Positions 25,329-41,214 of a stretch of DNA of 64,000 nt are shown here, piece after piece. A model generated the notes under the pieces. It saw only the letters and a program-made list of their open reading frames with translations, did no database searches and was not told the origin of the DNA. Source of the stretch: a virus (Duplodnaviria > Caudoviricetes); IMG/VR virus record IMGVR_UViG_3300028197_000002; one strand, written 5' to 3'. Each line of letters opens with the position of its first letter. Within the stretch, counting starts at the first letter, position 1. The position numbers and the translations under genes were made by a program.

Positions 25329-27392
25329 ATGAGCATATTACAAAAATATTCTGACAGATTTAACAAAGATCAATTTGTAAAATTAAATGAAGAAATGTCT
25401 TTTGATGATTATTTGACAAAAGTTAAACAAAACCCTAATTTAGCAAGAACTGCCTATCAATATCTTTATGATATGATATTGTCTAAGGGCACGTCTTCTG
25501 TTCAAAGATTTAAAAAAAAATATGTTCATTATAATTTCTTTGATGATGTAGAAGGTCCTATTTTTGGTTTAGATGAAACTCTTCACCAACTAGTTCAATT
25601 TTTCAAAGGTGCTGCTGGAGGCTATGGTCCTGAAAGAAGAGTTCTTTTGCTGCATGGACCTGTAGGTTCTTCAAAATCAACTATTTTAAAATGCATTAAA
25701 AAAGGCTTGGAAAAATATTCATTGTTGGATGAAGGCGCGTGGTACACATTTAAATGGGTAAACCTTCCAACAGGTAGCGATGATGGGATTTATACATCTA
25801 GTGAAGATGAATCTCCAATGCATGAAAATCCTCTCAAGTTGTTGCCTCCTGACTTAAGAAAAGATTTTCTAGATGAGATCAATTCAGAAAACAATAGATC
25901 TGATGCTGCTTATTCTTTTTCTGTTGATGGCGAATTAGATCCTAGGTCTAAAAAGTTTATGAAAGAACTTCTAATTAGGCATAAGGGAGATTGGGGAGAG
26001 GTTGTAAAAAATCATATAGTTGTGATTAGAAAAACTCACTCAGAAACAGATCGTGTTGGAATTGCAACATTTCAACCAAAAGATGAAAAAAATCAAGATA
26101 GCACAGAGCTTACTGGTGATATTAACTGGGGTAAGCTTCCACATTTCGGAACAGACTCAGATCCAAGAGCTTTTAATTTTGATGGAGAGTTTTGTGTCGG
26201 TAACAGAGGCATTATTGAATTCATAGAAGTTTTGAAACTTGCAAAAGAATTTTTGTATGATCTTTTAGGAGCCTCTCAAGAACGTCAAATTAAACCAAAG
26301 AAGTTTCCTCAAGTTTCTGTAGATACTGTTCTTGTCGGCCACACAAATAATCCAGAGTATGAGAGATTAAAGAGTGATCAAACTATGGAAGCTTTAAGAG
26401 ATAGAACTGTTAAAATAGATGTTCCTTATCTTCTTCGTTGGAGTGATGAATTGAATATATTGGAATATTATTATGGAAAAAATAAAATTAAACAACACAT
26501 AGCTCCTCATACATTAGAGATAGCTGCTCTTTGGTCTGTTCTAACTAGACTTCAAGAAGATAAAGATGGAAAGATTAGTCTTGTTGAAAAAGCCAAACTG
26601 TATGATGGAAGAGCGCTCCCGGGTTGGACTGAAGATTCTGTAAAAGAATTAAGAGATAAGTATACTGAAGAAGGAATGTTTAAAGGAATTAGCTGTCGAT
26701 ATGTCCAAGACAAGATATCTAATTGCCTAAGTTCAGAATACAATTACATAAATTTCTTTATGGTTTTGAATGAATTAAAATCAGGTTTAGATCATCAATC
26801 TTTATTTGATAGCGAAGAGGATAAGTCAAGGTATATTAATTGCATCTCTCTTGCAAAAAATGAATTAGACCAAATTTTAAAGTCGGAAGTTCAAAAGGCT
26901 TTGGTTGGAGACGAGAATGCTATTGAGAGATTGTGTGGAAATTACATAGACAATGTAATGGCCTACATAGAAGGCACAAAGATTAAAAACCCATTTACAG
27001 AGCAAGACCAAGAGCCAGACGAAAGGCTTATGCGTTCCATAGAAGAGAAAATTGATGTTCCTGAAGTTGGAACAGATGATTTTAGAAGGTCTTTAGCAGC
27101 CTTTATTGGAAACTTGGCTCATAGTGGCAAAGAATTCAAATGGGACTCAAACCCTCAACTTAAAAAGGCTCTGGAAGCAAAGTTGTTTGAAGATACAAAA
27201 GATCACATAAAGCTTTCTGCTTTGAGTGTCAAAGGCACAACGGTTGTTGACAAAGAAGTTCAAGAAAAAATAGACGCAGTCAAAAAGAGACTGATTGACA
27301 GCTATGGGTATAACGAACAATCTGCAACAGATGTTTTAGATTATGTGGGTTCCATTTTTGCCCGTGGTGATATGGCTGATGATGAAGAATAG
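25329..27392 (+). CDS. prkA: PrkA/YeaG family AAA+ (serine kinase-annotated) protein
   Basis: LHGPVGSSKST, ESPMHENPL, KDEKNQDSTELTG, NRGIIEFIE, EALRDR, GIS.RYVQ. Confidence 0.95.
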   Translation: MSILQKYSDRFNKDQFVKLNEEMSFDDYLTKVKQNPNLARTAYQYLYDMILSKGTSSVQRFKKKYVHYNFFDDVEGPIFGLDETLHQLVQFFKGAAGGYGPERRVLLLHGPVGSSKSTILKCIKKGLEKYSLLDEGAWYTFKWVNLPTGSDDGIYTSSEDESPMHENPLKLLPPDLRKDFLDEINSENNRSDAAYSFSVDGELDPRSKKFMKELLIRHKGDWGEVVKNHIVVIRKTHSETDRVGIATFQPKDEKNQDSTELTGDINWGKLPHFGTDSDPRAFNFDGEFCVGNRGIIEFIEVLKLAKEFLYDLLGASQERQIKPKKFPQVSVDTVLVGHTNNPEYERLKSDQTMEALRDRTVKIDVPYLLRWSDELNILEYYYGKNKIKQHIAPHTLEIAALWSVLTRLQEDKDGKISLVEKAKLYDGRALPGWTEDSVKELRDKYTEEGMFKGISCRYVQDKISNCLSSEYNYINFFMVLNELKSGLDHQSLFDSEEDKSRYINCISLAKNELDQILKSEVQKALVGDENAIERLCGNYIDNVMAYIEGTKIKNPFTEQDQEPDERLMRSIEEKIDVPEVGTDDFRRSLAAFIGNLAHSGKEFKWDSNPQLKKALEAKLFEDTKDHIKLSALSVKGTTVVDKEVQEKIDAVKKRLIDSYGYNEQSATDVLDYVGSIFARGDMADDEE

Positions 27393-27395
27393 TAG

Positions 27396-27403
27396 TATAA
27401 ATA
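27396..27403 (+). promoter_or_regulatory. T4-type late promoter motif
   Basis: TATAAATA immediately before yeaH. Confidence 0.4.
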
Positions 27404-27415
27404 GAGAGAATTTAA

Positions 27416-28594
27416 ATGCCACGTCGAATCGAAGAAGATCACAAAGACTTCCATGATGTATATGCTGGTCGAAAGAGAAAAGAATTAAAAAAATTCATAA
27501 AAAATGGAAGCATATTTAAAAATCGAGGTAAAAATGGAAAGATTGTATTAACAATCCCAAAAATTGACATTCCCCATATTGTTTATGGAAGCGACGGTTC
27601 AGGAGGAATTGGTCGAGGGGAAGGCGAAGAAGGAAAGGTTATTGGAAAAGAGAAGGAAGAAGGAGATGGCAAAGGAAAGGCTGGAAATGAGTCTGGAGAG
27701 GGAATAGACATTGCCGTTGATCTTGAAGAGATTCTTAAGTTTCTTCAAGATGAATTAGATCTTCCTGATATGAAGCCAAAGCCGAGTGATACATATGAAG
27801 ATGTGATAAAAAGATACAATAACATATCTTTAACAGGACCAGAGTCTTTAAGGCATAACGCAAGGACTTTGAGACAAGCTCTCAAAAGACAATGCGCGGA
27901 TGGTTCCATACACAAATTGCATGACATTCCCGGATTCGCCCAGCCTATAAAGTTGATAACGCCTATAAATAGCGACAAAAGATATAGGCAATTCAATGAA
28001 ATAAAAATACCTTCTAGCAATGCTGTTATATTTTTTGCTAGGGATGGGTCTGCTTCTATGGATCAATCCAAGTGTGACATAGTTAGTGATATGTGCTGGT
28101 GGATTGATGTTTGGATAAGAAAGTTCTATGAAAAAGTAGAAAGAGTTTATGTATGGCACGACACAGTGGCAAAAGAGGTTGATGAGAAAAAGTTTTATAA
28201 ATACAGATATGGAGGAGGAACTGTTTGTTCTGAAGCTTTAAAGCTTGTGTCTTCTATGTTTGAAAATAGATTCAATCCTTCAAAGTGGAATATCTATTTA
28301 TTTTATTTTACGGATGGAGATAATTGGTCTGGCGATAATGAAAAATTCATTAAAATGTTGAAAGAAGATTTTAACGTTAATGTCGTCAATATGGTTGGGA
28401 TAACTCAAGTTTTATCTTATAACTATGACAGAAGTCTGAAGCAGGCTGTAGATAAAAATGATTTTAAAAATGTTAAAACAACACAAGTTTCGTATGAACA
28501 AGATCAATACATGAACATATCAGAAGAAGATAGAGATAGGCAAATTAAAGAAGCTGTTGTTGATCTCTTGGGAAAGGAGAAAGTAAATGAGTAA
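27416..28594 (+). CDS. yeaH: YeaH/YhbH (DUF444) vWA-like protein
   Basis: Gly-rich GRGEGEEG segment, LDLPDMKPK, RDGSASM, YGGGT..S.AL, YFTDGDNW. Confidence 0.92.
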   Translation: MPRRIEEDHKDFHDVYAGRKRKELKKFIKNGSIFKNRGKNGKIVLTIPKIDIPHIVYGSDGSGGIGRGEGEEGKVIGKEKEEGDGKGKAGNESGEGIDIAVDLEEILKFLQDELDLPDMKPKPSDTYEDVIKRYNNISLTGPESLRHNARTLRQALKRQCADGSIHKLHDIPGFAQPIKLITPINSDKRYRQFNEIKIPSSNAVIFFARDGSASMDQSKCDIVSDMCWWIDVWIRKFYEKVERVYVWHDTVAKEVDEKKFYKYRYGGGTVCSEALKLVSSMFENRFNPSKWNIYLFYFTDGDNWSGDNEKFIKMLKEDFNVNVVNMVGITQVLSYNYDRSLKQAVDKNDFKNVKTTQVSYEQDQYMNISEEDRDRQIKEAVVDLLGKEKVNE

Positions 28595-30191
28595 GAAATT
28601 CATGGAAGGTTCTCCTATCTTGATGGGAAATAATACCATACCGGGAGTAGCTATTCCAGATGATCTTCAAAAATTGCTTCCGACGATATATAAAAAAGTA
28701 AGTGAATTTGGTTGCGACTATTATCCAACTGTGGTTGAGATGCTGACCTATGACGAGATAAGTGAAATTGCAGCCTATGGAGGGTTTCCTGTTCGATATC
28801 CACATTGGAAGTGGGGAATGGAGTATGAAGAGCTTCAAAGAGGATATATGTATGGGATGCATAAAATATATGAGTTGGTGATTAACACCAATCCAGTATA
28901 TATTTATTGTTTGGATTCTAATACGTTGGTTGATAATGTCACTGTTGTTGCTCATGCTCTAGGACATGCGGACTTTTTCAAAAATAATATTTATTTTTCT
29001 CAAACTAGTCAGAACATGATGAACCAGTTGGCTAATCACGGAGCTAGGATTAGAAAATATATGAGTCGTTGGGGGAGAGAGAGAGTTACTGAATTTATTG
29101 ATCATGTATTGAGAATAGAAACTTTAATTGATCATTCTAAAGCTTGGCAAAGAAAACAAGTCAAGAATCCAATTATCAAAGATCATAGAGCATATCGTCA
29201 TCCTAAAAGATTGAAATCAAGAGATGATCGTGATTACATGGATGATTATTTGAACCCAAAAGATTGGATTCAAAATCAAAAAGAAAGAATCGAATTTTTA
29301 GACACAGCGGACTATTTAGATATATTTTCAGATCCCACTAAAGATATTATGAGGTTCATAAGAGATTATGCTCCTCTAAAGCCTTGGGAAGCTGATATAG
29401 TTGCAATGCTTTATGACGAAAGCATGTACTTCGCTCCACAGAGACTCACCAAAACTATAAATGAAGGTTGGGCTTCTTACGTTGATTATAACATAATGGC
29501 AAGGCAAGGATTTACTGCTTTAGGCCAAGATCATGATAGTTCTGGAATAATAGAATATTCTCATCACAAAATGGGAGTGTTAGGTGGCAAGTATTCTATG
29601 AATCCTTATAAGCTTGGCTTTTGTTTGTTTTTGGATATTGAAGAAAGATGGAATAAAGGGCAGTTTGGAACGGAATGGGAAAATTGTGAAGATCTTGCTC
29701 AAAAAGAAAATTGGGATAAAAATCTAAATTTAGGTCATGAAAAAGTATTTGAAGTGAGAACATTTCAAAATGATTTGACTTTAATCATGGAATATTTTAC
29801 CCCAGAGTTCTGTGAGAAATATGAATTCTTCGAATGGAAGAAATATCCAAATGGAGAATATAAAATAGAAAATAGAGATTTTAATAAAATTAAAAATAAA
29901 TTAATAAAAAAATACACTAATGGAGGGTTGCCTGATATTTCTCTTGTAGACCACAATCACAAAGGCAAAAAAGTGCTATTTCTAGAGCATCAAGGTGACG
30001 GAAGGCCTTTATATGATCCTTATATACGCCCTGTGATGCAGTCTCTGAGGTATTTGTGGAAGAATGACGTATGTTTGTCTACAAAGGCTTTAGACGACAC
30101 AGAGCTTATTTATAAGTGTATGGGAGATGATTTGGCAATAGATATTGTAGACGGAAGGCAGTATTTCAGTCATTCTGACGTTTTTGAGTAA
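28587..30191 (+). CDS. spoVR: SpoVR/YcgB family protein
   Basis: GGFPVRYPHWKWG, IYELVINTNP, VVAHALGHADFFKNN, YFAPQ..TK.INEGWASY, NPYKLG. Confidence 0.95.
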   Translation: MSKKFMEGSPILMGNNTIPGVAIPDDLQKLLPTIYKKVSEFGCDYYPTVVEMLTYDEISEIAAYGGFPVRYPHWKWGMEYEELQRGYMYGMHKIYELVINTNPVYIYCLDSNTLVDNVTVVAHALGHADFFKNNIYFSQTSQNMMNQLANHGARIRKYMSRWGRERVTEFIDHVLRIETLIDHSKAWQRKQVKNPIIKDHRAYRHPKRLKSRDDRDYMDDYLNPKDWIQNQKERIEFLDTADYLDIFSDPTKDIMRFIRDYAPLKPWEADIVAMLYDESMYFAPQRLTKTINEGWASYVDYNIMARQGFTALGQDHDSSGIIEYSHHKMGVLGGKYSMNPYKLGFCLFLDIEERWNKGQFGTEWENCEDLAQKENWDKNLNLGHEKVFEVRTFQNDLTLIMEYFTPEFCEKYEFFEWKKYPNGEYKIENRDFNKIKNKLIKKYTNGGLPDISLVDHNHKGKKVLFLEHQGDGRPLYDPYIRPVMQSLRYLWKNDVCLSTKALDDTELIYKCMGDDLAIDIVDGRQYFSHSDVFE

Positions 30192-30258
30192 AATTGGTTT
30201 ATTTTAGGCTTTTCAAGGGGTAAATACATTGTATTTCCTCTTAAATTCAGGAGCCTAA

Positions 30259-30957
30259 ATGAGCAAGAGTGCAACTCCTAGAAAAGCTGCTGTAGAACAA
30301 CTTATTGGTGATGTTCATGGTTACAATGTAAACCATAGTTCTAGAGAGATATATCTTCATGGTTATTTGTCAGATGATGAGGAGCCGGGAGTTGATTATA
30401 GGATGGCTACAAATTTTATAAAAAATTTGCATATCTTACAATCTCAAAACAATAAGAACATTCTAGTTCACATGCACACTATTGGTGGCTGTTGGAGTGA
30501 TGGAATGGCAATGTATAATTCTATTAGAATGATACAATCTCCTCTGACTATATTAGGCTATGCTCAAGCTTCTTCTATGAGTGGGATTATAATTCAAGCT
30601 GCCGACAAAAGAGTAATAATGCCTGATTGCGAATTTATGATACATCATGGTTCTTTATCTGTTTCTGACAACTCAATGGCGGTTAAATCAGCAGTTGATA
30701 GGAATGAAGTCAACTGCAAAAGAATGCTACAGGTGTTTGCTCAAAGAGCAGTTCATGGGAAATTCTTTAAAGATCGAAGCTATGGAATTAGAAAAGCAAT
30801 GAATGTAATTGATCAGAAAATAAAATCTACATCTGATTGGTACATGGATGCTGAAGAAGCTGTTTACTATGGATTTGCTGATGGCATATTAGGGGAAAAA
30901 GGATTTGAAACTATGGCTAAGATAAGAGCAGGAAGAAAAAAGAAAGATTTCAGTTAA
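30259..30957 (+). CDS. clpP: ClpP-like protease subunit 1
   Basis: TIGG, ASSMS (Ser), FMIHH (His), DWYMDAEEAVYYGFAD (Asp). Confidence 0.85.
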   Translation: MSKSATPRKAAVEQLIGDVHGYNVNHSSREIYLHGYLSDDEEPGVDYRMATNFIKNLHILQSQNNKNILVHMHTIGGCWSDGMAMYNSIRMIQSPLTILGYAQASSMSGIIIQAADKRVIMPDCEFMIHHGSLSVSDNSMAVKSAVDRNEVNCKRMLQVFAQRAVHGKFFKDRSYGIRKAMNVIDQKIKSTSDWYMDAEEAVYYGFADGILGEKGFETMAKIRAGRKKKDFS

Positions 30958-30981: not shown

Positions 30982-31155
30982 ATGTTTGTTAATTTCTTTT
31001 TGTTTTTGATAATTTTTATTTTTTTATTGGGAGTTTTTTGCATATCTATGAGTCTATTTGTTAAGGATTCAAAACAAAACTTACATTTTAAGATTAAAAA
31101 AAAATCAGAAGTAGACTTGTCACCAATTATTGAAGAGATCGAAGATGATTTCTAG
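30982..31155 (+). CDS. 57-aa single-pass membrane protein (not in track)
   Basis: MFVNFFLFLIIFIFLLGVFCISMSLFVKDSKQ...; SD GAGGAGG. Confidence 0.6.
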   Translation: MFVNFFLFLIIFIFLLGVFCISMSLFVKDSKQNLHFKIKKKSEVDLSPIIEEIEDDF

Positions 31156-31188
31156 CAACAATTATTTTTTGTTTTTTAATTTTCATCA

Positions 31189-31217
31189 TTGTAGTCGATC
31201 AGTTTTTCTACTATAAT
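31189..31217 (+). promoter_or_regulatory. Sigma70-like promoter of dnaE N-part
   Basis: TTGTAG-N17-TATAAT. Confidence 0.5.
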
Positions 31218-31261
31218 CATTTATTGAATTTATTTAGAAAGTCAGACCTGAGAATTTAAAA

Positions 31262-32659
31262 ATGAAAATTGTTGGATTTGAACATTTACATTTACACACT
31301 GATTTTTCTGTTTTGGATGGCTATGGAACTGTGCATGAGTATGCAAAAAGAGCAAGAGAGATAAATCAACAGTTCCTTTGCGTGAGTGATCATGGATCTT
31401 TAGGTGCTGTTCCCAGACAAGTGCAGGCTTGCGAAAAGTATGGAGTCAATCCTATATTTGCTTGTGAACTTTATGTAAACCCTCTTCAGCCTGCATCGAA
31501 GTCTCATAAGTCTTCTAAAATTACAGAAGACATGTCTCCAGAAGAAAGAAAGGCATTTAAGAAATCTTATCATTTGCTTGCAATCGCTTATAGTCAGCAA
31601 GGATATGTTAATTTAGTTAATTTATCATCTGCTGCTTGGACTAAGGGTTTTTATTACAAACCTAGAGTTAATCATGAGCTTTTAACTAAGCACAAAGAAG
31701 GTTTGATTTTTACTTCTTGTTGTTACAACTCCGAAATAGGTCAAGCTTTTGATAGGGGTGGTGAAGAAGCAGGTTTCGATGCTGTTGAGAAATACATAGA
31801 TCTTTTCGGTAAAGAAAATTTCTATTTAGAAATGATGCTTTTAGATTTCAACAAGCAAAAGCCATATAATAAATTCATTATAAAGGCTCATGAAAGATAT
31901 GGTTTGAAATTAACATTAGCAAATGACTGTCATTATTGCATGGAAGAAGATAGTAAAATGCAAAGACTTATGCTTATGGTTCAAACTAAAAATACTGTGA
32001 AAGACATAGAAGCGAAATTAGCTGCTGATGATACTGCTGATTTGTTTGAACTTCAAGATACTAATTTGTGGATGAAGTCAGAAGAAGAATTAAATTTCAA
32101 GTGGAAAAAAGATTATGCCGAAGATATTCCTTATGAGTTGTTTGAACAAGCTAAAATTAATACGACAAAAATAGCAGAAAAATCAAAAGGCGTTGAATTA
32201 GATAGGTCTATTAAGCTTCCTTATATGGAAGATGCTGATTTAAAATTATTAGAGGCTATTGAAGAAGGATTTTTAAAAAGACATCTTCCTAAAAATAAAA
32301 CTTACTTGGGAAGAGTAAAAGAAGAGTATTCTCTTATTTGCAATAAAGGGTTTGCTTCTTATTTTCTTATTCAAAAAATAATGACAGACGAAGCCAGAAG
32401 GATTTGTCCCACTTTACTGGGGTACGGAGATGGCTCAGAGGCAGTTGGTCCCGGAAGAGGAAGTGCTGTCGGCGCTTTGACTTGTTATTGCTTAGGCATT
32501 ACGGATGTAGACCCAATTAAGCATGATTTGCTTTTTTCAAGGTTTTTAAGTCCTTCTCGTGGTGGAAAGCAAATGAAATTGAGATTTTCGATAGATCCGA
32601 TAGAGGTCACAGAAGAATTTGCGAATGATTGTCCTTTTGATGTTCCTTTTAATTATTGA
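31262..32659 (+). CDS. dnaE: DNA polymerase III alpha (DnaE), N-terminal fragment (PHP + first palm segment)
   Basis: HLHLHTDFSVLDG, SDHG, ACE, HLL, CC, NDCHY; GPGRGSAVG; ends after FSRFLSPSR. Confidence 0.93.
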   Translation: MKIVGFEHLHLHTDFSVLDGYGTVHEYAKRAREINQQFLCVSDHGSLGAVPRQVQACEKYGVNPIFACELYVNPLQPASKSHKSSKITEDMSPEERKAFKKSYHLLAIAYSQQGYVNLVNLSSAAWTKGFYYKPRVNHELLTKHKEGLIFTSCCYNSEIGQAFDRGGEEAGFDAVEKYIDLFGKENFYLEMMLLDFNKQKPYNKFIIKAHERYGLKLTLANDCHYCMEEDSKMQRLMLMVQTKNTVKDIEAKLAADDTADLFELQDTNLWMKSEEELNFKWKKDYAEDIPYELFEQAKINTTKIAEKSKGVELDRSIKLPYMEDADLKLLEAIEEGFLKRHLPKNKTYLGRVKEEYSLICNKGFASYFLIQKIMTDEARRICPTLLGYGDGSEAVGPGRGSAVGALTCYCLGITDVDPIKHDLLFSRFLSPSRGGKQMKLRFSIDPIEVTEEFANDCPFDVPFNY

Positions 32660-32710
32660 AAATTTGATTCAATTTAACTATACTAGCTTAACAAGGAGTT
32701 TTTAAATAAA

Positions 32711-32968
32711 ATGAACATCAAAATATTAACTTTATCTACTGGTGTCGATATATTGGGATACATTGAATCTGAGGAAAGTAATTATTTCTTAGTTTCTAAT
32801 CCTTATGTTATTAAGGCGTCAATAACAGATACGGAAGAAACCTTTACGCCTTATACTACATTTTCTGATAATAGTGTAAAGATATTTAAAACAGCAGTGG
32901 TTGCTGAATTTGAGCCAGTTGAAAGACTTAAGATTTCTTACGCTGAAAAATTCGAAATTCCTGTTTGA
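32711..32968 (+). CDS. Conserved T4-like phage small protein (Sm-like fold suspected)
   Basis: IKILTLSTGVDILG..NPYVI..PYTTF pattern; SD AGGAG. Confidence 0.5.
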   Translation: MNIKILTLSTGVDILGYIESEESNYFLVSNPYVIKASITDTEETFTPYTTFSDNSVKIFKTAVVAEFEPVERLKISYAEKFEIPV

Positions 32969-33729
32969 TTATTTAGGAATTAAAAATTTTACTCTGACTT
33001 TATATGGGAAGCTTTGCGATCCTACGATTGCTTCTTGTTGATTATATTTACTTATAATCAATTTGTCAGCTTTGGGAAATAAAGATTTCATCCCTTCAAC
33101 TTTGTATCCTTTTGCTTTTAAGAAATCATTTAGTTTTTTCTCTATTTGATTTTTAGCATCTTTTTCACTTGAAGCAGTAATAACACCTGAGATATCAGCG
33201 ACAACTTCTATTCCACCTGTGCCTAAGTCTTCTGATTGTATGACGTCTATCATTGTGTCGCTGAATGTGACTTTTGATACGCCATCTTTTATTTCTTGAA
33301 TGTGTTTTGTGATGACTTGAGTATCGGCTTTCATTTTTGCCCCAAGTTTAAATAGTCTTTCTTCACTTGGAGATCTTTTGTCTCCAAAATCATATTCTAA
33401 ACTCGGTCGATTTTTTTTAAGCCAATCCCTATCTTGCTTAAAATCTTTTACGGCTTGTTTGTCTCCTTGCATGTCCGAGTAGGAATATGCATATTGTTGT
33501 TGATTTGGAGATTGTGCGGACACTTGTCCTATTCCAGCACCAGCCATTGCCGCAGCTAATGTTGCAGCCTTAGCTGTCTTTCCTAGTTTTGATTTTCCTA
33601 GCTTTTGTAACAATCCCGCTTCTAATAGATCAACAAGTTGCTCTTGAGTAGGTTCATCGTATCCTTCTTCGATAAGAATAGACTTGATAACTTTTATATC
33701 TTTGTCTTGTGTGTATTCTTTGAATGTTT

Positions 33730-33733
<4 letters not shown>
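32969..33733 (-). CDS. CTS-like putative virion protein with internal signal-peptide-like segment
   Basis: MKTFKEYTQD; LLEAG then KTAKAATLAAAMAGAGIGQVSA. Confidence 0.7.
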
Positions 33734-35028
<1,295 letters not shown>

Positions 35029-35058
35029 TATTAAATTCTCCTATTAAGTAAACATTAT

Positions 35059-35066
35059 TATTTATA
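35059..35066 (-). promoter_or_regulatory. T4-type late promoter motif
   Basis: TATAAATA on the minus strand 30 nt before the 35028 start. Confidence 0.55.
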
Positions 35067-35150
35067 CTCCACGTTGTAATTTTGAATTGGTTTTTTATTG
35101 ATGATTTGTTATAATGTAAACTTAATTTTAGTTAAATAAAAAGGAATTTT

Positions 35151-36140
35151 ATGCCTGTTGTAAATACTCAATGTGACGAAGAGTCTGATTGGCTAGACTC
35201 TGTTTCCCCTGTTTCGGTTAATTCGGTGGAGTTCGAACTCGAATCGCCAAATTATCGAGGATTGAAGCAATTCACGACCACAGACGGCAAGAAATTCTTT
35301 GCAGCAGGGTCTACTGTTTCATCTTTGGTTCCGGGCACATATAACATTAAAGTGGATAATTCTGCTGGAATTTGTTTTCAAAAAATAGATATTGCGACTG
35401 ATGGGCTTTTAAGATTCCCAAATAGTAATTCTGAAAAGGTTATTGAAGAGATTTCTAAGTTTTGGGATCGAGAGTCTGTATTTAAGAAATACAATCTTAA
35501 TTATAAAAGAGGAATATTTTTATATGGACCACCCGGATCGGGGAAATCTTCAACAATACAAATTGTGTCAGAGGGTGTCGTAAAAAGAAACGGAGTTGTT
35601 TTTAAATTTAACAATCCATCTGTGTTTGTTGAAGGAATTAGAATTTTCAGAGAAATTCAACCAAACACTCCTGTCGTTGTTTTAATGGAAGATATTGACT
35701 CCACAATTGAAGCTTTTAATGAATCAGAAGTTTTAAATATATTAGATGGAGTTGATCAAGCAAGTAAAATTGTTTTTTTAGCCACAAGCAATTACCCAGA
35801 GCTTTTAAGTCAAAGGCTTTTAAATAGGCCAAGCAGATTTGATAAAAGATTTAAAATGGAACACCCTGATGAAAATGCAAGAAGATTGTATTTTAATAAT
35901 TTAATTGATGACGAAGCCATAGAAAATTCATCAATTGACATTGACCAATGGGTAGCAGAAACAGAGAATATGTCTATTGCTCACTTGAAAGAATTGTTTA
36001 TTACTGTTTGCATACTTGGGAATTCTTATACTGATTCTTTAGGGGCTTTGAAAGGTATGAGCAACATACCTCGTTCAGATGCAGATTATGATAAGAAAGT
36101 GGGGTTTGGTGTTAATTCTGGTGGGAAAGGTTGGAGATAA
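35151..36140 (+). CDS. AAA+ ATPase
   Basis: LYGPPGSGKSS, MEDID, LNILDG, ATSNYPE, RPSRFD. Confidence 0.9.
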   Translation: MPVVNTQCDEESDWLDSVSPVSVNSVEFELESPNYRGLKQFTTTDGKKFFAAGSTVSSLVPGTYNIKVDNSAGICFQKIDIATDGLLRFPNSNSEKVIEEISKFWDRESVFKKYNLNYKRGIFLYGPPGSGKSSTIQIVSEGVVKRNGVVFKFNNPSVFVEGIRIFREIQPNTPVVVLMEDIDSTIEAFNESEVLNILDGVDQASKIVFLATSNYPELLSQRLLNRPSRFDKRFKMEHPDENARRLYFNNLIDDEAIENSSIDIDQWVAETENMSIAHLKELFITVCILGNSYTDSLGALKGMSNIPRSDADYDKKVGFGVNSGGKGWR

Positions 36141-38746
36141 TGGACAGCAGAGAAGAACTAATTAAAATTTGCATAACTGAAATGCAAAACAAAAACTTAA
36201 ATGATTCATTCTATAAGGATCGTTTGAAAAAAGAGTTTAAAGAAATAGACATTCAATCTGAACATGATTATTTTATAAAAATTTATGATAAAAAATTAAA
36301 GTTTGATAAAAATGAAAATAATCTTTTAGTGTGTTATTTGTTAGGAGCTTGCGATCAATTTGATAAAGATGTTGATCCTGTATATTCGCAAGGTGAGTTT
36401 CCTGATATTGATGTTGATTATCTTCCTGCTATTCAAGATTATTTAAGAAATAAATTTTGCCCAAAAGCTTTTGGAAGAGAAAATGTTGTAAACATAGGAA
36501 ATTATGGAACTTTTGGAATTAAATCTGCCTTATTAGATATGGCTAGGGTTCACGGTGCCGACAGAACAGAGATACAGACGATAACCAAAAATCTACAAGA
36601 TAAAGACGAAGAGGGTCAGCCACTAACATGGGAAAAGGCACTAGAGATTTCTCCTGCTTTGAGTGAGTATTGTGAAAGTTACCCAGAGGTTACAGATGCT
36701 GCTCGAAGATTAATTAATAGAAATAGAAGTAGAGGAAAACATGCTGGTGGAACTGTTATCTCAAGTGTTAAAATAGATGACTTTGTTCCAATTATGATAG
36801 ACACTGATGGGAATCCAGTTTCTGGTTGGACGGAAGGACTTCACGATCAAGATTTACAGCCTGTTGGTCTAATTAAATTTGATGTTCTTGCGATTAAAGA
36901 CTTGTTGAGAATTTCTACTTGTTGCCAATTGATCAGACAAAGGCATCCAGAAGTAAAATCAATTTGCGCATTGAAAAATGGTTCCGATTGGAGTGATATT
37001 TCTTACTTAGATGATTCTCAAGCTATTGAATTGGCGAACCAAGCCAAGACAAGAGGTGTTTTTCAATTTGATAGCGAAGGAATGAGAAACCTTGTTAAGT
37101 CAGGGGGAGTTAGCTCTTTTGAAGATTTGGTTGCGTACACAGCATTGTTTCGTCCCGGACCATTAGGAATGGGAATGCATGAAAAATATATTGATAGAAA
37201 AAAAGGCCGAGAGGATTGGAATGAAGACACTCCTGATTGTATAAAAGATATTTTAGGAACAACTTATGGTGTTTTATGTTATCAAGAGCAAGTAATGAAA
37301 GTTCTCAATAGAGTTGGAGACATTCCTCTTATTCATTGTGAGAAAATTAGAAAAGCGATCAGCAAGAAGAAGACAGATGAATTCATAAAGTATAAAGAAA
37401 TGTTTTTGGAGAAAGGTTCTGTAAAAACAGGATGGCCGCTTGTGTCAGAAGACAACAAGAACATGAATTATCTTTGGAGCCAAATCGAAGCTTTTGCTGG
37501 ATATGGTTTCAATAAGTCTCATGCCGTTGCGTACACTTATATATCTTCAAGATTGCTGTGGTTAAAGACTCACTATCCACTAGAGTTTTTTAACACCACT
37601 TTTAGGTTAGAGGCAGATGAAGACAAGGTTCGATCTTATAAAAGAGAAGCAGAAAAGCTTGGAATAGAAATTAAAAAATGTGATGCAAATAAATCAAAAG
37701 CAAGTTATGAAATTGTAGATGACAAGATTTACATAGGATTTTCAAACATAAAAGGAATTGGCAAAGATGTCGCGGATGAAATGGTCCGCAAGCAGCCTTA
37801 TTGTGGACTAGAAGATTTCCTTGAAAGGTTTGGGACTGACAAAAGAATTGTTGAACCTTTGATATATCTTGAGATTTTCAAAGAAAAGCCAATTAATTTC
37901 TTATTGGAATTTTATGAAGAATATAAAAAATGGTCTAAAAGTAAAACGGATCGAGGAAAGCGACAGGGAAAAAGAAAAAAAGAACTTAAGGAAATAATAT
38001 TTTCTTTTCTTAAAGAAGAACTGTTAGAAGATGGGAAAATAGATGAAATTCTAAGTGAAGATAAGTTGCTTTATCTTCATGACAACTTTGAAGAATTTGA
38101 CAATTCGCTTCTTTCGGTAGAGTTTTCTAAAGAGGATTTGCTTCCTACTTTGAAAAAATATTATAGGTCTGTCACAAGTTATAGAGAAAAGATACGAGTG
38201 ATCGAAAATGATCCGCTATCTTTGAATAATTGGAATTCTACTGATAAGTACAAGCTAAGTTCTATTCCCAATCAATTTGATATTGAGAAAAAATATTATG
38301 GATTTAGTTGGCAACACCCTCTTGAGAAAAGCCCTGATTATTATGGAGATAATTTATCTTTCAATAGATTTAAAGATGACGATTCAATATTGAAAACAGG
38401 CGTGGAATGCATGATTATAAAAAAGCCTGAAGAAAAAATATCTAAAAAGGGAAACAAGTATTACTATGTTTTGGTTGAAGATGATAACTGGAATATTGAA
38501 GTCGTCACTTTTTGGGAAGAAGACTATTTGAGATTTAAAGATGAGATTAATTATTGGAATGAAGATGAAAAAAGAGGCAACTTACTACAATTAAGATGTA
38601 CAAGGCCCGGAAAAGGATTTAAATCTTATACTTTTGAATCGCCTTCCAAGCGAGATAGGCACAAATTGCCTGAAGACAAAAAGAAAGACTATAGACTTAG
38701 AGTCATGAGGGCGCCAATTTTAAGAGGTGAAGAATCTAATGAGTGA
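36140..38746 (+). CDS. dnaE: DNA polymerase III alpha (DnaE), C-terminal catalytic fragment
   Basis: FPDIDVDY, GKHAGG, IKFDVLA, GVFQFDS, LFRPGP, YQEQVM, AGYGFNKSHAVAY, FSNIKGIG. Confidence 0.93.
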   Translation: MDSREELIKICITEMQNKNLNDSFYKDRLKKEFKEIDIQSEHDYFIKIYDKKLKFDKNENNLLVCYLLGACDQFDKDVDPVYSQGEFPDIDVDYLPAIQDYLRNKFCPKAFGRENVVNIGNYGTFGIKSALLDMARVHGADRTEIQTITKNLQDKDEEGQPLTWEKALEISPALSEYCESYPEVTDAARRLINRNRSRGKHAGGTVISSVKIDDFVPIMIDTDGNPVSGWTEGLHDQDLQPVGLIKFDVLAIKDLLRISTCCQLIRQRHPEVKSICALKNGSDWSDISYLDDSQAIELANQAKTRGVFQFDSEGMRNLVKSGGVSSFEDLVAYTALFRPGPLGMGMHEKYIDRKKGREDWNEDTPDCIKDILGTTYGVLCYQEQVMKVLNRVGDIPLIHCEKIRKAISKKKTDEFIKYKEMFLEKGSVKTGWPLVSEDNKNMNYLWSQIEAFAGYGFNKSHAVAYTYISSRLLWLKTHYPLEFFNTTFRLEADEDKVRSYKREAEKLGIEIKKCDANKSKASYEIVDDKIYIGFSNIKGIGKDVADEMVRKQPYCGLEDFLERFGTDKRIVEPLIYLEIFKEKPINFLLEFYEEYKKWSKSKTDRGKRQGKRKKELKEIIFSFLKEELLEDGKIDEILSEDKLLYLHDNFEEFDNSLLSVEFSKEDLLPTLKKYYRSVTSYREKIRVIENDPLSLNNWNSTDKYKLSSIPNQFDIEKKYYGFSWQHPLEKSPDYYGDNLSFNRFKDDDSILKTGVECMIIKKPEEKISKKGNKYYYVLVEDDNWNIEVVTFWEEDYLRFKDEINYWNEDEKRGNLLQLRCTRPGKGFKSYTFESPSKRDRHKLPEDKKKDYRLRVMRAPILRGEESNE

Positions 38747-39221
38747 AATAATTAATGAAGAAAATTTTGACCGGTATTTTAAAGATGTAAGGCAAAACAA
38801 GCCTGAAAAAGATGATATTATTGCAAAGTACTCTGCCATAGCAGAATTTGTTGATGGTGGTGAAAAAAGACAAATAATATCATTGCTAATGACCACAGAA
38901 GACAAAATGGAGGCAACTGCTCAAATAATGAGAAAGCTTCTTTTTGCTTCCGAAAGAGATGCTTTAAAAGTTCCAAGAACAATGGCGGAAGACTTGATTT
39001 CTGGTATGTCTACCGATGAAGTGGCAGAAAAATCATATAAATATAAAGTTGAAATTTTTTATTATACTAAAAAAGAGCATTTGCCATTAGATGATCCTCA
39101 CTGGAGTAGTATTTCAATAATTGATATGAATGAAATTGATTCTAAGGTGAAAGCCAAGCATTTTAGCGATGAGGAAAATGACCAAGAGAATCTTAAAATT
39201 GCAAATAAAAATGAAAAATAA
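38727..39221 (+). CDS. Hypothetical protein
   Basis: 164-aa ORF overlapping the dnaE stop. Confidence 0.7.
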   Translation: MKNLMSEIINEENFDRYFKDVRQNKPEKDDIIAKYSAIAEFVDGGEKRQIISLLMTTEDKMEATAQIMRKLLFASERDALKVPRTMAEDLISGMSTDEVAEKSYKYKVEIFYYTKKEHLPLDDPHWSSISIIDMNEIDSKVKAKHFSDEENDQENLKIANKNEK

Positions 39222-40182: not shown

Positions 40183-41214
40183 GTGGAAGAATTTAAAAAA
40201 ATATTAGAAGGTAAAACTAAGGCTTGTTTATTTACCCACCCTTTCCCTGATCCAGATGCTATTGGAAGTATGATGGGTATGAGTTGGGTTTTAGACAAAC
40301 TTGGGATTAAATCTAACATGTATTATGATGGGGTCATATCCCATCCTCAAAATAAATCTATGGTCAATCTTTTGGACTTAGAGTTAATTCCTTTGTCCAA
40401 TTATGACAGTGATCTCTATGACCAAAGTACAACTTTGAACATCTTGTTGGACACAGTCCCAGACAATGCTGGCGCTCCAAATGAAGTTTCTTTTGACATG
40501 GTCATAGATCACCACAAAGACTTCCCATTAGATTACAAAGGTGTTTATTTAAATTTAAAATCTGGAAGTGCCTGTTCTGTTGTTTATAATCTTATAGAAC
40601 AATTAGAATTAGAGTTTGAAGAAGACAAGCTGGCAGATAATAAAGTTGCCACTGCAATGATGATAGGAATTACCACGGACACAGAATTTTTAATGTCTGA
40701 TGACTGTAGTGATCATGAATTTTTTGCTTGGAGTAAATTGTTTCAATTTAGAGATCCAACTCTTCTAAAGCAGATCGTTCATTATGAAAGGCCTAAGTTT
40801 TGGATCGACTCTAAGGCTACTGCTTGCGCCAAGGCAATTGTAGATGAAAGTGTTGGAGTTGTAGGAATGGGCTTAATTCCTCAAAAACATCGTGACATGA
40901 TCGCAGACATGGCTGATGAAATGGTTACTTGGGAGGACCTCCATACAGCGATTGTATTCGCTTTAGTCGATGGGAGCAGGATTGAAGGCTGTGTTAGAAC
41001 TAAAGCATCCTCTGTCTCTGCTCCTTCTTTGTGCAATGAGCTTGCTGGCAAATACGGATTAGGTGGAGGGAAGCTTGGGAAAGGCGCTTATAAATACGAA
41101 CTGTGTGGAGCAGGAATAGAAGAAGATGATGACGAAGATATTAAATTAAAAACTTGGGATCTGTTTCAAGACAAAGAAATAAGAAGGGTTTTCAGGATTG
41201 TAAAAAATAATTAA
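40183..41214 (+). CDS. DHH/DHHA1 family phosphoesterase
   Basis: HPFPDPDAIGS, IDHH, DT, GGG in DHHA1. Confidence 0.88.
   Translation: MEEFKKILEGKTKACLFTHPFPDPDAIGSMMGMSWVLDKLGIKSNMYYDGVISHPQNKSMVNLLDLELIPLSNYDSDLYDQSTTLNILLDTVPDNAGAPNEVSFDMVIDHHKDFPLDYKGVYLNLKSGSACSVVYNLIEQLELEFEEDKLADNKVATAMMIGITTDTEFLMSDDCSDHEFFAWSKLFQFRDPTLLKQIVHYERPKFWIDSKATACAKAIVDESVGVVGMGLIPQKHRDMIADMADEMVTWEDLHTAIVFALVDGSRIEGCVRTKASSVSAPSLCNELAGKYGLGGGKLGKGAYKYELCGAGIEEDDDEDIKLKTWDLFQDKEIRRVFRIVKNN

Follow-up and report, generated by a model that had tools for sequence, protein, structure and literature searches.

Organization of the locus and domain content of the two genes

A stretch of 64,000 nucleotides (nt) of viral DNA (Duplodnaviria; Caudoviricetes; IMG/VR record IMGVR_UViG_3300028197_000002), referred to below as the window, was analyzed with regard to a DNA polymerase III alpha subunit (DnaE) that is encoded in two separate genes, dnaE-N (gene N, the N-half) and dnaE-C (gene C, the C-half). 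The coordinates of all features are collated in Table 1. The two genes are separated by 3,480 nt with four unrelated open reading frames (ORFs), in agreement with an initial annotation, prepared from the letters of the DNA, that had placed four unrelated genes and approximately 3.5 kb between the halves. The DNA of the window is low in GC (about 33%) and phage-like.

Gene N covers positions 5–98 of the 260 positions of the Pfam profile DNA_pol3_alpha, and gene C covers positions 100–260 in addition to the fingers and HHH_6 profiles; the genes therefore abut at one point of DNA_pol3_alpha, which places the cut between the GS loop (GPGRGS) and the DxD strand, as initially annotated. The PHP domain of gene N could be aligned with that of Taq Pol III alpha over the full length of the domain, and its nine metal ligands, described in the initial annotation as apparently retained, show no exchange among 60 relatives (H10, H12, D19, H44, E69, H104, C154, D222, and H224). 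Likewise, no variation of GPGRGS was found among 60 N-halves. The motif FSRFLSPSR, which GPGRGS precedes by 23 residues, ends at residue 433 and is followed by a tail of 32 residues, the RGGK-x-MKLRF core of which is kept in approximately 100 relatives; the remaining tail residues are variable. An assignment of the tail (RFSIDP...CPF) as a degenerate DxD strand plus helix (DVDYLP...CP) was rejected as unsupported (hhalign, E 0.29 for that register).

The reading frame of gene C is open from a TTG codon at 36131. Its true start is almost surely the ATG at 36140, because the sequences of relatives start with M-x-D-S-R-E and the TAA stop codon of the upstream AAA gene overlaps with this ATG as TAATG. 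In 55 relatives, no substitution was seen at P88, D89, D91, D93, K246, F247, or D248, and the DxD strand aligns structurally to residues 401–404 of the E. coli polymerase. When the AlphaFold2 (AF2) model of gene C was compared with structures of Pol III alpha (4iqj, 3e0d, and 5fku), Z values of 21–22 were obtained for the part running from the DxD strand through the OB domain, and the protein was found to terminate just past the OB fold. A PHP domain with nine ligands, palm motifs of the Pol-beta type, and fingers, HhH, and OB domains, all of which mark the C-family of polymerases, are thus present. The core is not formed by a single polypeptide; a two-polypeptide catalytic core was found in all relatives examined.

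The head of gene C as a second copy of the palm module

The first 87 residues of gene C, preceding the catalytic strand and referred to as the head, genuinely duplicate the last palm module of gene N in degenerate form. The initial annotation had described about 90 residues at the start of gene C as paralogous to the end of gene N and devoid of GRGS, and this description was borne out by four independent comparisons. The full-length phage DnaE profile PHROG 405 is matched by gene N at positions 43–439 and by gene C at positions 338–1078, positions 338–439 (approximately 100) being covered twice. When gene C was compared with intact phage DnaE proteins by tblastn, the alignments began at residues 18–28 and overlapped with the stretch that is matched by the end of gene N. 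Alignment of a profile of 95 heads with a profile of 74 N-halves (hhalign) matched head residues 2–82 to N-half residues 321–422 (E 8.6e-5), and residues 3–50 alone to residues 322–370 (E 2e-5); a deletion of approximately 21 residues in the head takes out the GPGRG loop. In PHROG scans with the head only, DnaE families were matched at the same profile region with E values of 2e-4 and 9e-3.

The head folded alone by AF2 without templates reached a predicted local distance difference test (pLDDT) score of 92.4. When this model was compared exhaustively with 48,161 representatives of the PDB, the top seven matches were C-family polymerases, all of them at the module that precedes the catalytic strand, and the best unrelated fold was found at Z 4.0. 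The matches comprised residues 315–423 of DnaE1 from Mycobacterium tuberculosis (Z 10.8 and 9.9, root-mean-square deviation 2.3–2.4 Å, 89 residues aligned), residues 286–404/405 of E. coli alpha (Z 9.2 and 8.7), residues 826–972 of PolC (Z 10.9), and Taq alpha (Z 6.8). A Foldseek search of the PDB with the same model gave E values of 0.5 or worse, and all nine rows listed were C-family polymerases.

The paralogy was not visible in a pairwise BLASTP comparison of gene N with gene C, in which the duplicated region appeared at E 10 only. No match of the head alone to Pfam was obtained, and a search of PDB sequences with the head profile returned no significant match and no polymerase.

The place at which GPGRGS would sit is taken in the head by the sequence NENN. 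Across 47 heads, N58 never varies, and conservation reaches at least 90% at E59, N60, and N61; the adjacent L62 is invariant or nearly so in the head consensus. In the head of a complete relative with a genome of 572 kb (G001), NVNN is found in place of NENN.

Distribution, conservation and selection

The best 120 matches to each half were all proteins of the size of an N-half or a C-half, on contigs of up to 634 kb. N-half relatives have 410–480 residues and 63–98% identity, and C-half relatives have approximately 855 residues and 48–96% identity. Inteins are inserted elsewhere in some of these proteins, and many C-halves of 1000–1350 residues carry inteins. When the head profile was searched against 1.8 billion proteins, 217 cluster representatives (clustered at 50% identity) were found at E ≤ 0.001. 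The head stood at the N-terminus in nearly all of the 150 matches listed from these 217 clusters, and no intact DnaE was among those listed. An internal head match in P0410 proved to be a false positive in a repeat protein, and P0303, a second apparent exception, is not an intact DnaE but a C-half with a cpYpsA-like domain fused upstream of its head.

The complete gene order (N-half, gap, AAA gene, up to three genes, C-half) was found in three related loci (L003, L007, and L008). In L005 and L006 the N-half, the gap, and the AAA gene were seen, the C-half lying outside the examined locus; in L012 both halves are present with no AAA gene detected, and the split is kept at 49% identity. GPGRGS is unchanged in N-halves down to this same level of identity. 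The distance between the halves ranges from 2 to approximately 10 kb and the gene content of the gap is different in each relative, which marks the gap as a variable hot spot in which cargo genes collect.

Substitutions were counted against L008, an independently assembled contig of the Joint Genome Institute (JGI) that represents a close strain from another sample. The ratio of nonsynonymous to synonymous rates (dN/dS) was 0.035 for gene N (66 synonymous and 11 nonsynonymous changes) and 0.048 for gene C (164 and 42); synonymous and nonsynonymous changes numbered 7 and 3 in the head and 11 and 4 in the tail. On these counts, both halves are under strong purifying selection, and comparison of the sequences indicates that the split is old; it is shared by more than 100 relatives, which belong to a clade of marine huge phages that is very large.

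The genome of G001 has direct terminal repeats and is rated 100% complete by CheckV. The Pfam family PF07733 occurs in it only as two pieces, and no match to the family B polymerase PF00136 was found in it. The only other polymerase-like gene of G001 is a PolA-like frame of 408 residues (G001:C1:252280-252861, L019), for which no tblastn match was obtained in the window. In the N-halves of two relatives (P0064 and P0100), mini-inteins are inserted exactly between GPGRG and S. Inteins sit in functionally essential motifs, and for this reason the two insertions fit a functional constraint on GPGRGS. Mini-inteins occur at this site in several relatives, to which the N-half locus at 187449–189008 of G001 (L011) is also assigned.

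Tests for splicing and misassembly

No intein domain was found in gene N or gene C by Pfam, and no intron reached the Rfam gathering score in the window. At the junction, the tail of gene N opens with GGK, and the last residues of the head are QGEF; neither a Cys or Ser nucleophile nor a His-Asn pair followed by Cys, Ser, or Thr is present before GEFPD. An atypical split intein with a short N-piece and a long C-piece was excluded on the grounds of the fold of the head and the absent nucleophiles, and a group I or group II intron on the grounds of the Rfam result, so that the absence of inteins noted in the initial annotation holds and extends to introns. In two RNA runs (X14 and X20), no supported contig joining the two halves was found, and X14 contained no contigs on either half. 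A record of X20 that leads from 35724 to 31161 was set aside as spurious, as was an apparent joint between 31911 and 36305 in the Logan contigs, which has only 21 letters on one side.

The arrangement of gene N and gene C is not a misassembly, an outcome that had been named at the outset as one that would speak against the split. The whole region is present in the same order in L008, and long contigs from two marine DNA runs of different studies match it with 0–1 differences. These contigs (62 kb and 32–48 kb) cover positions 31000–33800, with gene N, its stop codon, and the downstream genes, and positions 34228–39000, with the AAA gene, the overlap, and gene C. The linkage of the two halves is based on the window, on L008, and on a contig of 372 kb that carries the N-half, the encoded protein being identical to that of gene N. 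In total, 20 runs from 16 studies, marine or aquatic, contain at least part of the stretch.

Structural model of the two chains

The complex of the N-half with residues 1–525 of the C-half was modeled as had been suggested with the initial annotation. An interaction prediction score from aligned errors (ipSAE) of 0.82 was obtained, in comparison with 0.00 for the best of three controls; 58 of 80 solved complexes attained this mark, as did 2 of 110 mismatched pairs. The runs shared 96% of the contacts, and the pLDDT of the partner was 88. In the model, residues 394–404 of gene N (the GPGRGS loop) contact the DxD strand (93–95) and the NKSH helix of the fingers (458–468) of gene C. The tail of gene N (426–447) and the end of the head (80–95) are located at the interface, and residues 32–70 of the head, including the NENN stretch (53–62), pack on the N-half.

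In the AF2 model of the C-half alone, the head is confident and the catalytic strands (83–92, 196–202, and 230–245) have pLDDT values below 50. Global alignments of this model to Pol III alpha start at residues 85–93, for which reason the head is placed outside the canonical slot. On these models, the C-half alone looks incomplete.

Proposed enzyme and alternative explanations

Taken together, gene N and gene C probably encode a working two-subunit DnaE with an active site shared between the chains and with the head as a duplicate docking module. The two chains of this DnaE-type replicative polymerase would be translated separately and would associate non-covalently. Subunit N would contribute proofreading through its PHP domain and, with the GPGRGS loop of its palm module, would bind the triphosphate of the incoming deoxynucleoside triphosphate; subunit C would provide the catalytic residues D91, D93, and D248 together with the thumb, fingers, HhH, and OB domains, a nucleotidyltransferase site of the Pol-beta type being built from both chains. 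The head, formerly a second GS module, may now act as a folding and docking element in contact with the homologous module of subunit N. The anatomy of the two genes, the duplicated module, the age and conservation of the split form, the purifying selection, and the lack of a splicing element are shown by the observations above; we infer that the chains associate physically, that the active site forms in trans, what the head does, and how the split arose. The proposal of an active site completed in trans, already contained in the initial annotation, gains support from the invariance of the motifs, from purifying selection, from G001 with no other C- or B-family polymerase, and from the complex model.

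Several points weigh against this assignment. The complex model may recall solved single-chain Pol III alpha and shows likeness of fold, not binding. The canonical slot can take only one of the two module copies, and its occupant is deduced from conservation and from the model. Support for the duplication from sequence comparison only is modest (hhalign probability 60–77%, E 2e-4 and 9e-3 in the head-only PHROG scans). The Logan contigs do not span the poly-Asp repeat between the halves, which is the sole break in their coverage. Finally, metatranscriptome contigs on both halves in run X20 come from a relative at 90–95% identity, and carry-over of DNA is possible.

A C-half that is self-sufficient, with the head filling the palm slot, NENN or other residues replacing GRGS, and the N-half acting only as an epsilon-like PHP proofreader, is an unlikely alternative. 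The head does have the canonical fold of the module, is highly conserved, and is covalently attached beside the DxD strand, and PHP-less DnaE-like polymerases occur as single genes in PB1-like phages. However, GPGRGS would then hardly be expected to stay invariant in N-halves down to 49% identity and to be the target of inteins in relatives; moreover, the head is devoid of any Gly/Ser/Arg loop owing to its deletion of approximately 21 residues, and both models put the head outside the canonical slot and the loop of the N-half on the DxD strand. It is very improbable that the two genes are the remains of a broken dnaE with replication being carried out by the host or by another phage polymerase. 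Gene callers treat such pieces as fragments, and the complete relative G001 has the PolA-like frame, but the low dN/dS values of both genes (0.035 and 0.048), the invariance of the catalytic residues across relatives (60 N-halves and 55 C-halves), the conservation of head and tail, the absence of frameshifts and internal stops, and the occurrence of the split form throughout the head-bearing clusters argue against decay.

Rejoining of the halves by a split intein (typical or atypical), by a giant or trans-spliced intron, or by ribosomal bypassing is highly improbable as well. A short N-piece is a known feature of some split inteins, the tail (32 residues) and the head (87 residues) together come close to the size of a mini-intein, and inteins are common among relatives of both halves. 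Against this stand the fold of the head, which consists of helices only and corresponds to the Pol III palm module and not to the HINT beta fold, the junction without a Cys/Ser nucleophile or His-Asn plus Cys/Ser/Thr, the lack of Pfam intein and Rfam intron matches, the genes on the opposite strand in a gap that differs in every relative, and the lack of a supported joining contig in either RNA run. An assembly artefact, the halves being contiguous or fused in the real genome, is hardly credible: the Logan contigs are indeed interrupted at the poly-Asp repeat located between the two genes, yet the stop codon of the N-half with the downstream genes and the junction of the AAA gene with the C-half were each reproduced in contigs of two studies, an independent JGI contig spans the region, and the same architecture is seen in many assemblies.

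As the most economical origin of the two-subunit enzyme, it is proposed that an ancestral AAA-dnaE unit was partially duplicated in tandem, the duplicated part comprising the AAA gene and the 5' part of dnaE to approximately codon 450. By complementary loss, the upstream copy would have kept the PHP domain and GRGS and dropped everything after FSRFL, and the downstream copy would have dropped the PHP domain and GRGS (codons 1 to approximately 320); the first copy of the AAA gene would be gone, and the space between the copies would then have become a hot spot for cargo. The present gene order and the overlapping module would thus result from this path. The duplication put forward in the initial annotation is well supported; that it caused the split is the simplest origin suggested by the sequences, the order of events not being provable from these data. 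Fracture mediated by an endonuclease may be an alternative origin; mobile elements are present in the gaps of relatives, and no endonuclease domain was found in the four ORFs of the present gap (Pfam, PHROGs).

A further reading of the head, as a built-in switch that occupies or shields the nucleotide slot in the free C-half until the GRGS module of the PHP subunit displaces it or pairs with it, is considered improbable. If true, it would describe a replicase with assembly-gated catalysis that is active only when the proofreading subunit is bound, and the switch would have arisen when one catalytic subdomain was duplicated in part and the copies degenerated in complementary ways.

Neighbouring genes

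Table 1. Coordinates of the two polymerase genes, their domains and motifs, and the ORFs between them (positions in the window; aa, amino acids).
Feature	Positions	Strand	Remarks
dnaE-N (gene N)	31262..32659	+	465 aa; PHP domain, then first palm module
PHP (exonuclease-type) domain, aa 5-250 of gene N	31274..32011	+	Pfam PHP, E 9e-41
Palm N-terminal helical module, copy 1, aa 322-433 of gene N	32225..32560	+	Pfam DNA_pol3_alpha; hhalign partner of the head
GPGRGS loop, aa 396-401 of gene N; triphosphate-binding GS motif	32447..32464	+	invariant in 60 relatives
Tail of the N-half, aa 434-465, and stop	32561..32659	+	RGGK-x-MKLRF core conserved
85-aa ORF, function unassigned	32711..32968	+	phrog_527; separate from the polymerase; conservation limited to close relatives
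254-aa ORF, unrelated cargo	32969..33733	-	not in the gap of more distant relatives
432-aa poly-Asp/Glu protein	33730..35028	-	397 aa in L008
AAA+ ATPase, 329 aa	35151..36140	+	Pfam AAA, E 1.6e-13; stop overlaps start of dnaE-C (TAATG)
dnaE-C (gene C)	36140..38746	+	868 aa from ATG; head, catalytic palm, thumb, fingers, HhH, OB
Head, aa 1-87 of gene C; degenerate palm-module copy 2 without GRGS	36140..36400	+	hhalign, AF2, PDB comparison
NENN, aa 58-61 of gene C, replacing GPGRGS after deletion of ~21 aa	36311..36322	+	conserved in 47 heads
PDIDVDY strand, aa 88-94 of gene C; catalytic Asp91 and Asp93	36401..36421	+	P88, D89, D91, D93 invariant
KFD, aa 246-248 of gene C; third catalytic Asp	36875..36883	+	K246, F247, D248 invariant
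Fingers domain	36980..37414	+	Pfam DNA_pol3_finger PF17657, E 2.9e-40
Helix-hairpin-helix (HhH) DNA-binding domain	37661..37885	+	Pfam HHH_6 PF14579, E 3.8e-12
C-terminal OB fold, AF2 residues 749-859	38384..38716	+	SSB/PriB OB folds, Z 8-9; Taq alpha OB region

The AAA+ ATPase matches PHROG families without assigned function and is translationally coupled to dnaE-C by the TAATG overlap. A homologue (51% identity; L001, 10156–11220, minus strand) is located approximately 780 nt upstream of the intact dnaE of the huge phage LR756511. Judging from these gene arrangements, the ATPase may be a conserved partner of the split polymerase. The AAA gene of L006 carries an intein.

The 432-residue protein contains a run of approximately 150 Asp, Glu, and Met residues, and its length differs between strains; the poly-Asp repeat of the gene interrupts the short-read (Logan) contigs in two runs. 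Thirty-one nucleotides upstream of this gene, the sequence TATAAATA is found at positions 35059–35066 on the minus strand and resembles a late promoter of the T4 type.

In relatives, the space before the C-half accumulates cargo genes. A gene for a cpYpsA-like domain follows the AAA gene in L005 (21222–21443), the C-half lying outside the examined locus, and a TnpB/OrfB_IS605-like gene is located inside the gap of L006 (18759–19613).

Just upstream of dnaE-N, a block of PrkA, DUF444 (YeaH), and SpoVR genes followed by ClpP is found (positions 25329–30957). The PrkA-DUF444-SpoVR block is also located upstream of the N-half in L003, L005, L006, L007, L008, and L012, ClpP being present in five of these six; the block was present in every relative examined, and its synteny extends across the clade. 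Two genes past dnaE-C, a DHH-family phosphoesterase is encoded (40183–41214, plus strand), and the same gene follows the C-half of L003.

Comparison with known split polymerases

The closest precedent is found in the jumbo phages of group 2.2, in which a split "minimal" Pol III alpha is encoded as an NTP-binding (nucleoside triphosphate-binding) and a Mg2+/template-binding protein by distant genes alongside PolB (Iyer, Anantharaman, Krishnan, Burroughs, Aravind 2021, Viruses 13:63, PMC7824862); those authors predict that the halves reconstitute one enzyme, and no intein is involved (PMC7824862). Compared on the basis of the description in that paper, the present split likewise falls between the NTP-binding and the Mg2+/template-binding subdomains, with two genes and no intein. 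Unlike the group 2.2 proteins, which lack the PHP and other Pol III domains, the present enzyme is of full size with PHP, fingers, HhH, and OB domains; no PolB is found in the complete relative G001 of the present clade, and the halves are syntenic at a distance of 2 to approximately 10 kb instead of distant. The present C-half furthermore keeps a degenerate copy of the NTP-binding module, whereas no such copy is described for group 2.2 (PMC7824862).

The best phage relative of both halves is the intact DnaE (1179 residues) of an uncultured huge phage (LR756511.1, 595 kb), with 56% identity to the N-half and 41% identity to the C-half. In contrast to the split enzyme studied here, its FSRFLS motif runs directly into PDVDVDF, with neither head nor tail. 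In Bacillus phage vB_BceM_WH1 (LC597490.1, 230 kb; L004, 7920–12118), DnaE is annotated as three ORFs with approximately 725 and 400 nt between the pieces; the first break lies after PDVDTD, a different site from the present split, and no Rfam intron reached the gathering score there.

In cyanobacteria, dnaE is divided into two genes that carry split-intein pieces and whose products are joined by trans-splicing (Wu, Hu, Liu 1998; Caspi et al. 2003; as cited in PMC2677866 and PMC3919608). The present genes resemble these in encoding one polymerase in two parts but differ in the site of the split, in the absence of intein pieces, and in the predicted non-covalent association. Fractured genes have also been described among phage-like environmental replication genes including dnaE, with split inteins and a free-standing homing endonuclease in the gap (Dassa, London, Stoddard, Pietrokovski 2009, PMC2677866). 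A broken dnaE with other genes between its parts is common to both cases, whereas neither a split intein nor a homing endonuclease is found here.

Among T4-like phages, PolB is reportedly split without an intein into gp43A and gp43B in Aeromonas phages (Petrov et al. in 2006), and NrdA of Aeh1 is said to be split by mobE into pieces that assemble without splicing (Friedrich et al. in 2007). An essential replication enzyme made as two polypeptides that assemble unspliced is the common element. Those splits concern other enzyme families, are recent, limited to few phages, and linked to homing endonucleases, whereas the present split is ancient, clade-wide, located in the catalytic subdomain, and accompanied by a duplicated module.

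PF07733 has been noted as the marker of the largest group of marine jumbo phages, the split being unmentioned (Weinheimer and Aylward 2022, PMC9123017). No description of a full-length PHP-containing DnaE that is split with a duplicated junction was found in the literature. An intein-free split polymerase as such is known; the present variant is notable for the phylogenetic breadth of its occurrence, the position of the cut within the catalytic subdomain, and the retained degenerate duplicate.

Significance

If the proposed assignment is correct, the two genes encode a natural replicative polymerase with an active site shared by two non-covalently joined chains, that is, a natural split-polymerase design that needs no intein, and an example of duplication and complementary loss within one protein subdomain. 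For annotation, the genes should be designated dnaE-N and dnaE-C and not fragments or pseudogenes, which applies also to the thousands like them in metagenomes. The head, which among the matches listed was found only at the N-termini of C-halves, would serve as a specific marker of the split form. In the single complete relative searched, no C- or B-family polymerase other than the two-gene DnaE was found, and the gene family to which this enzyme belongs is the marker of a clade of marine huge phages that is very abundant.

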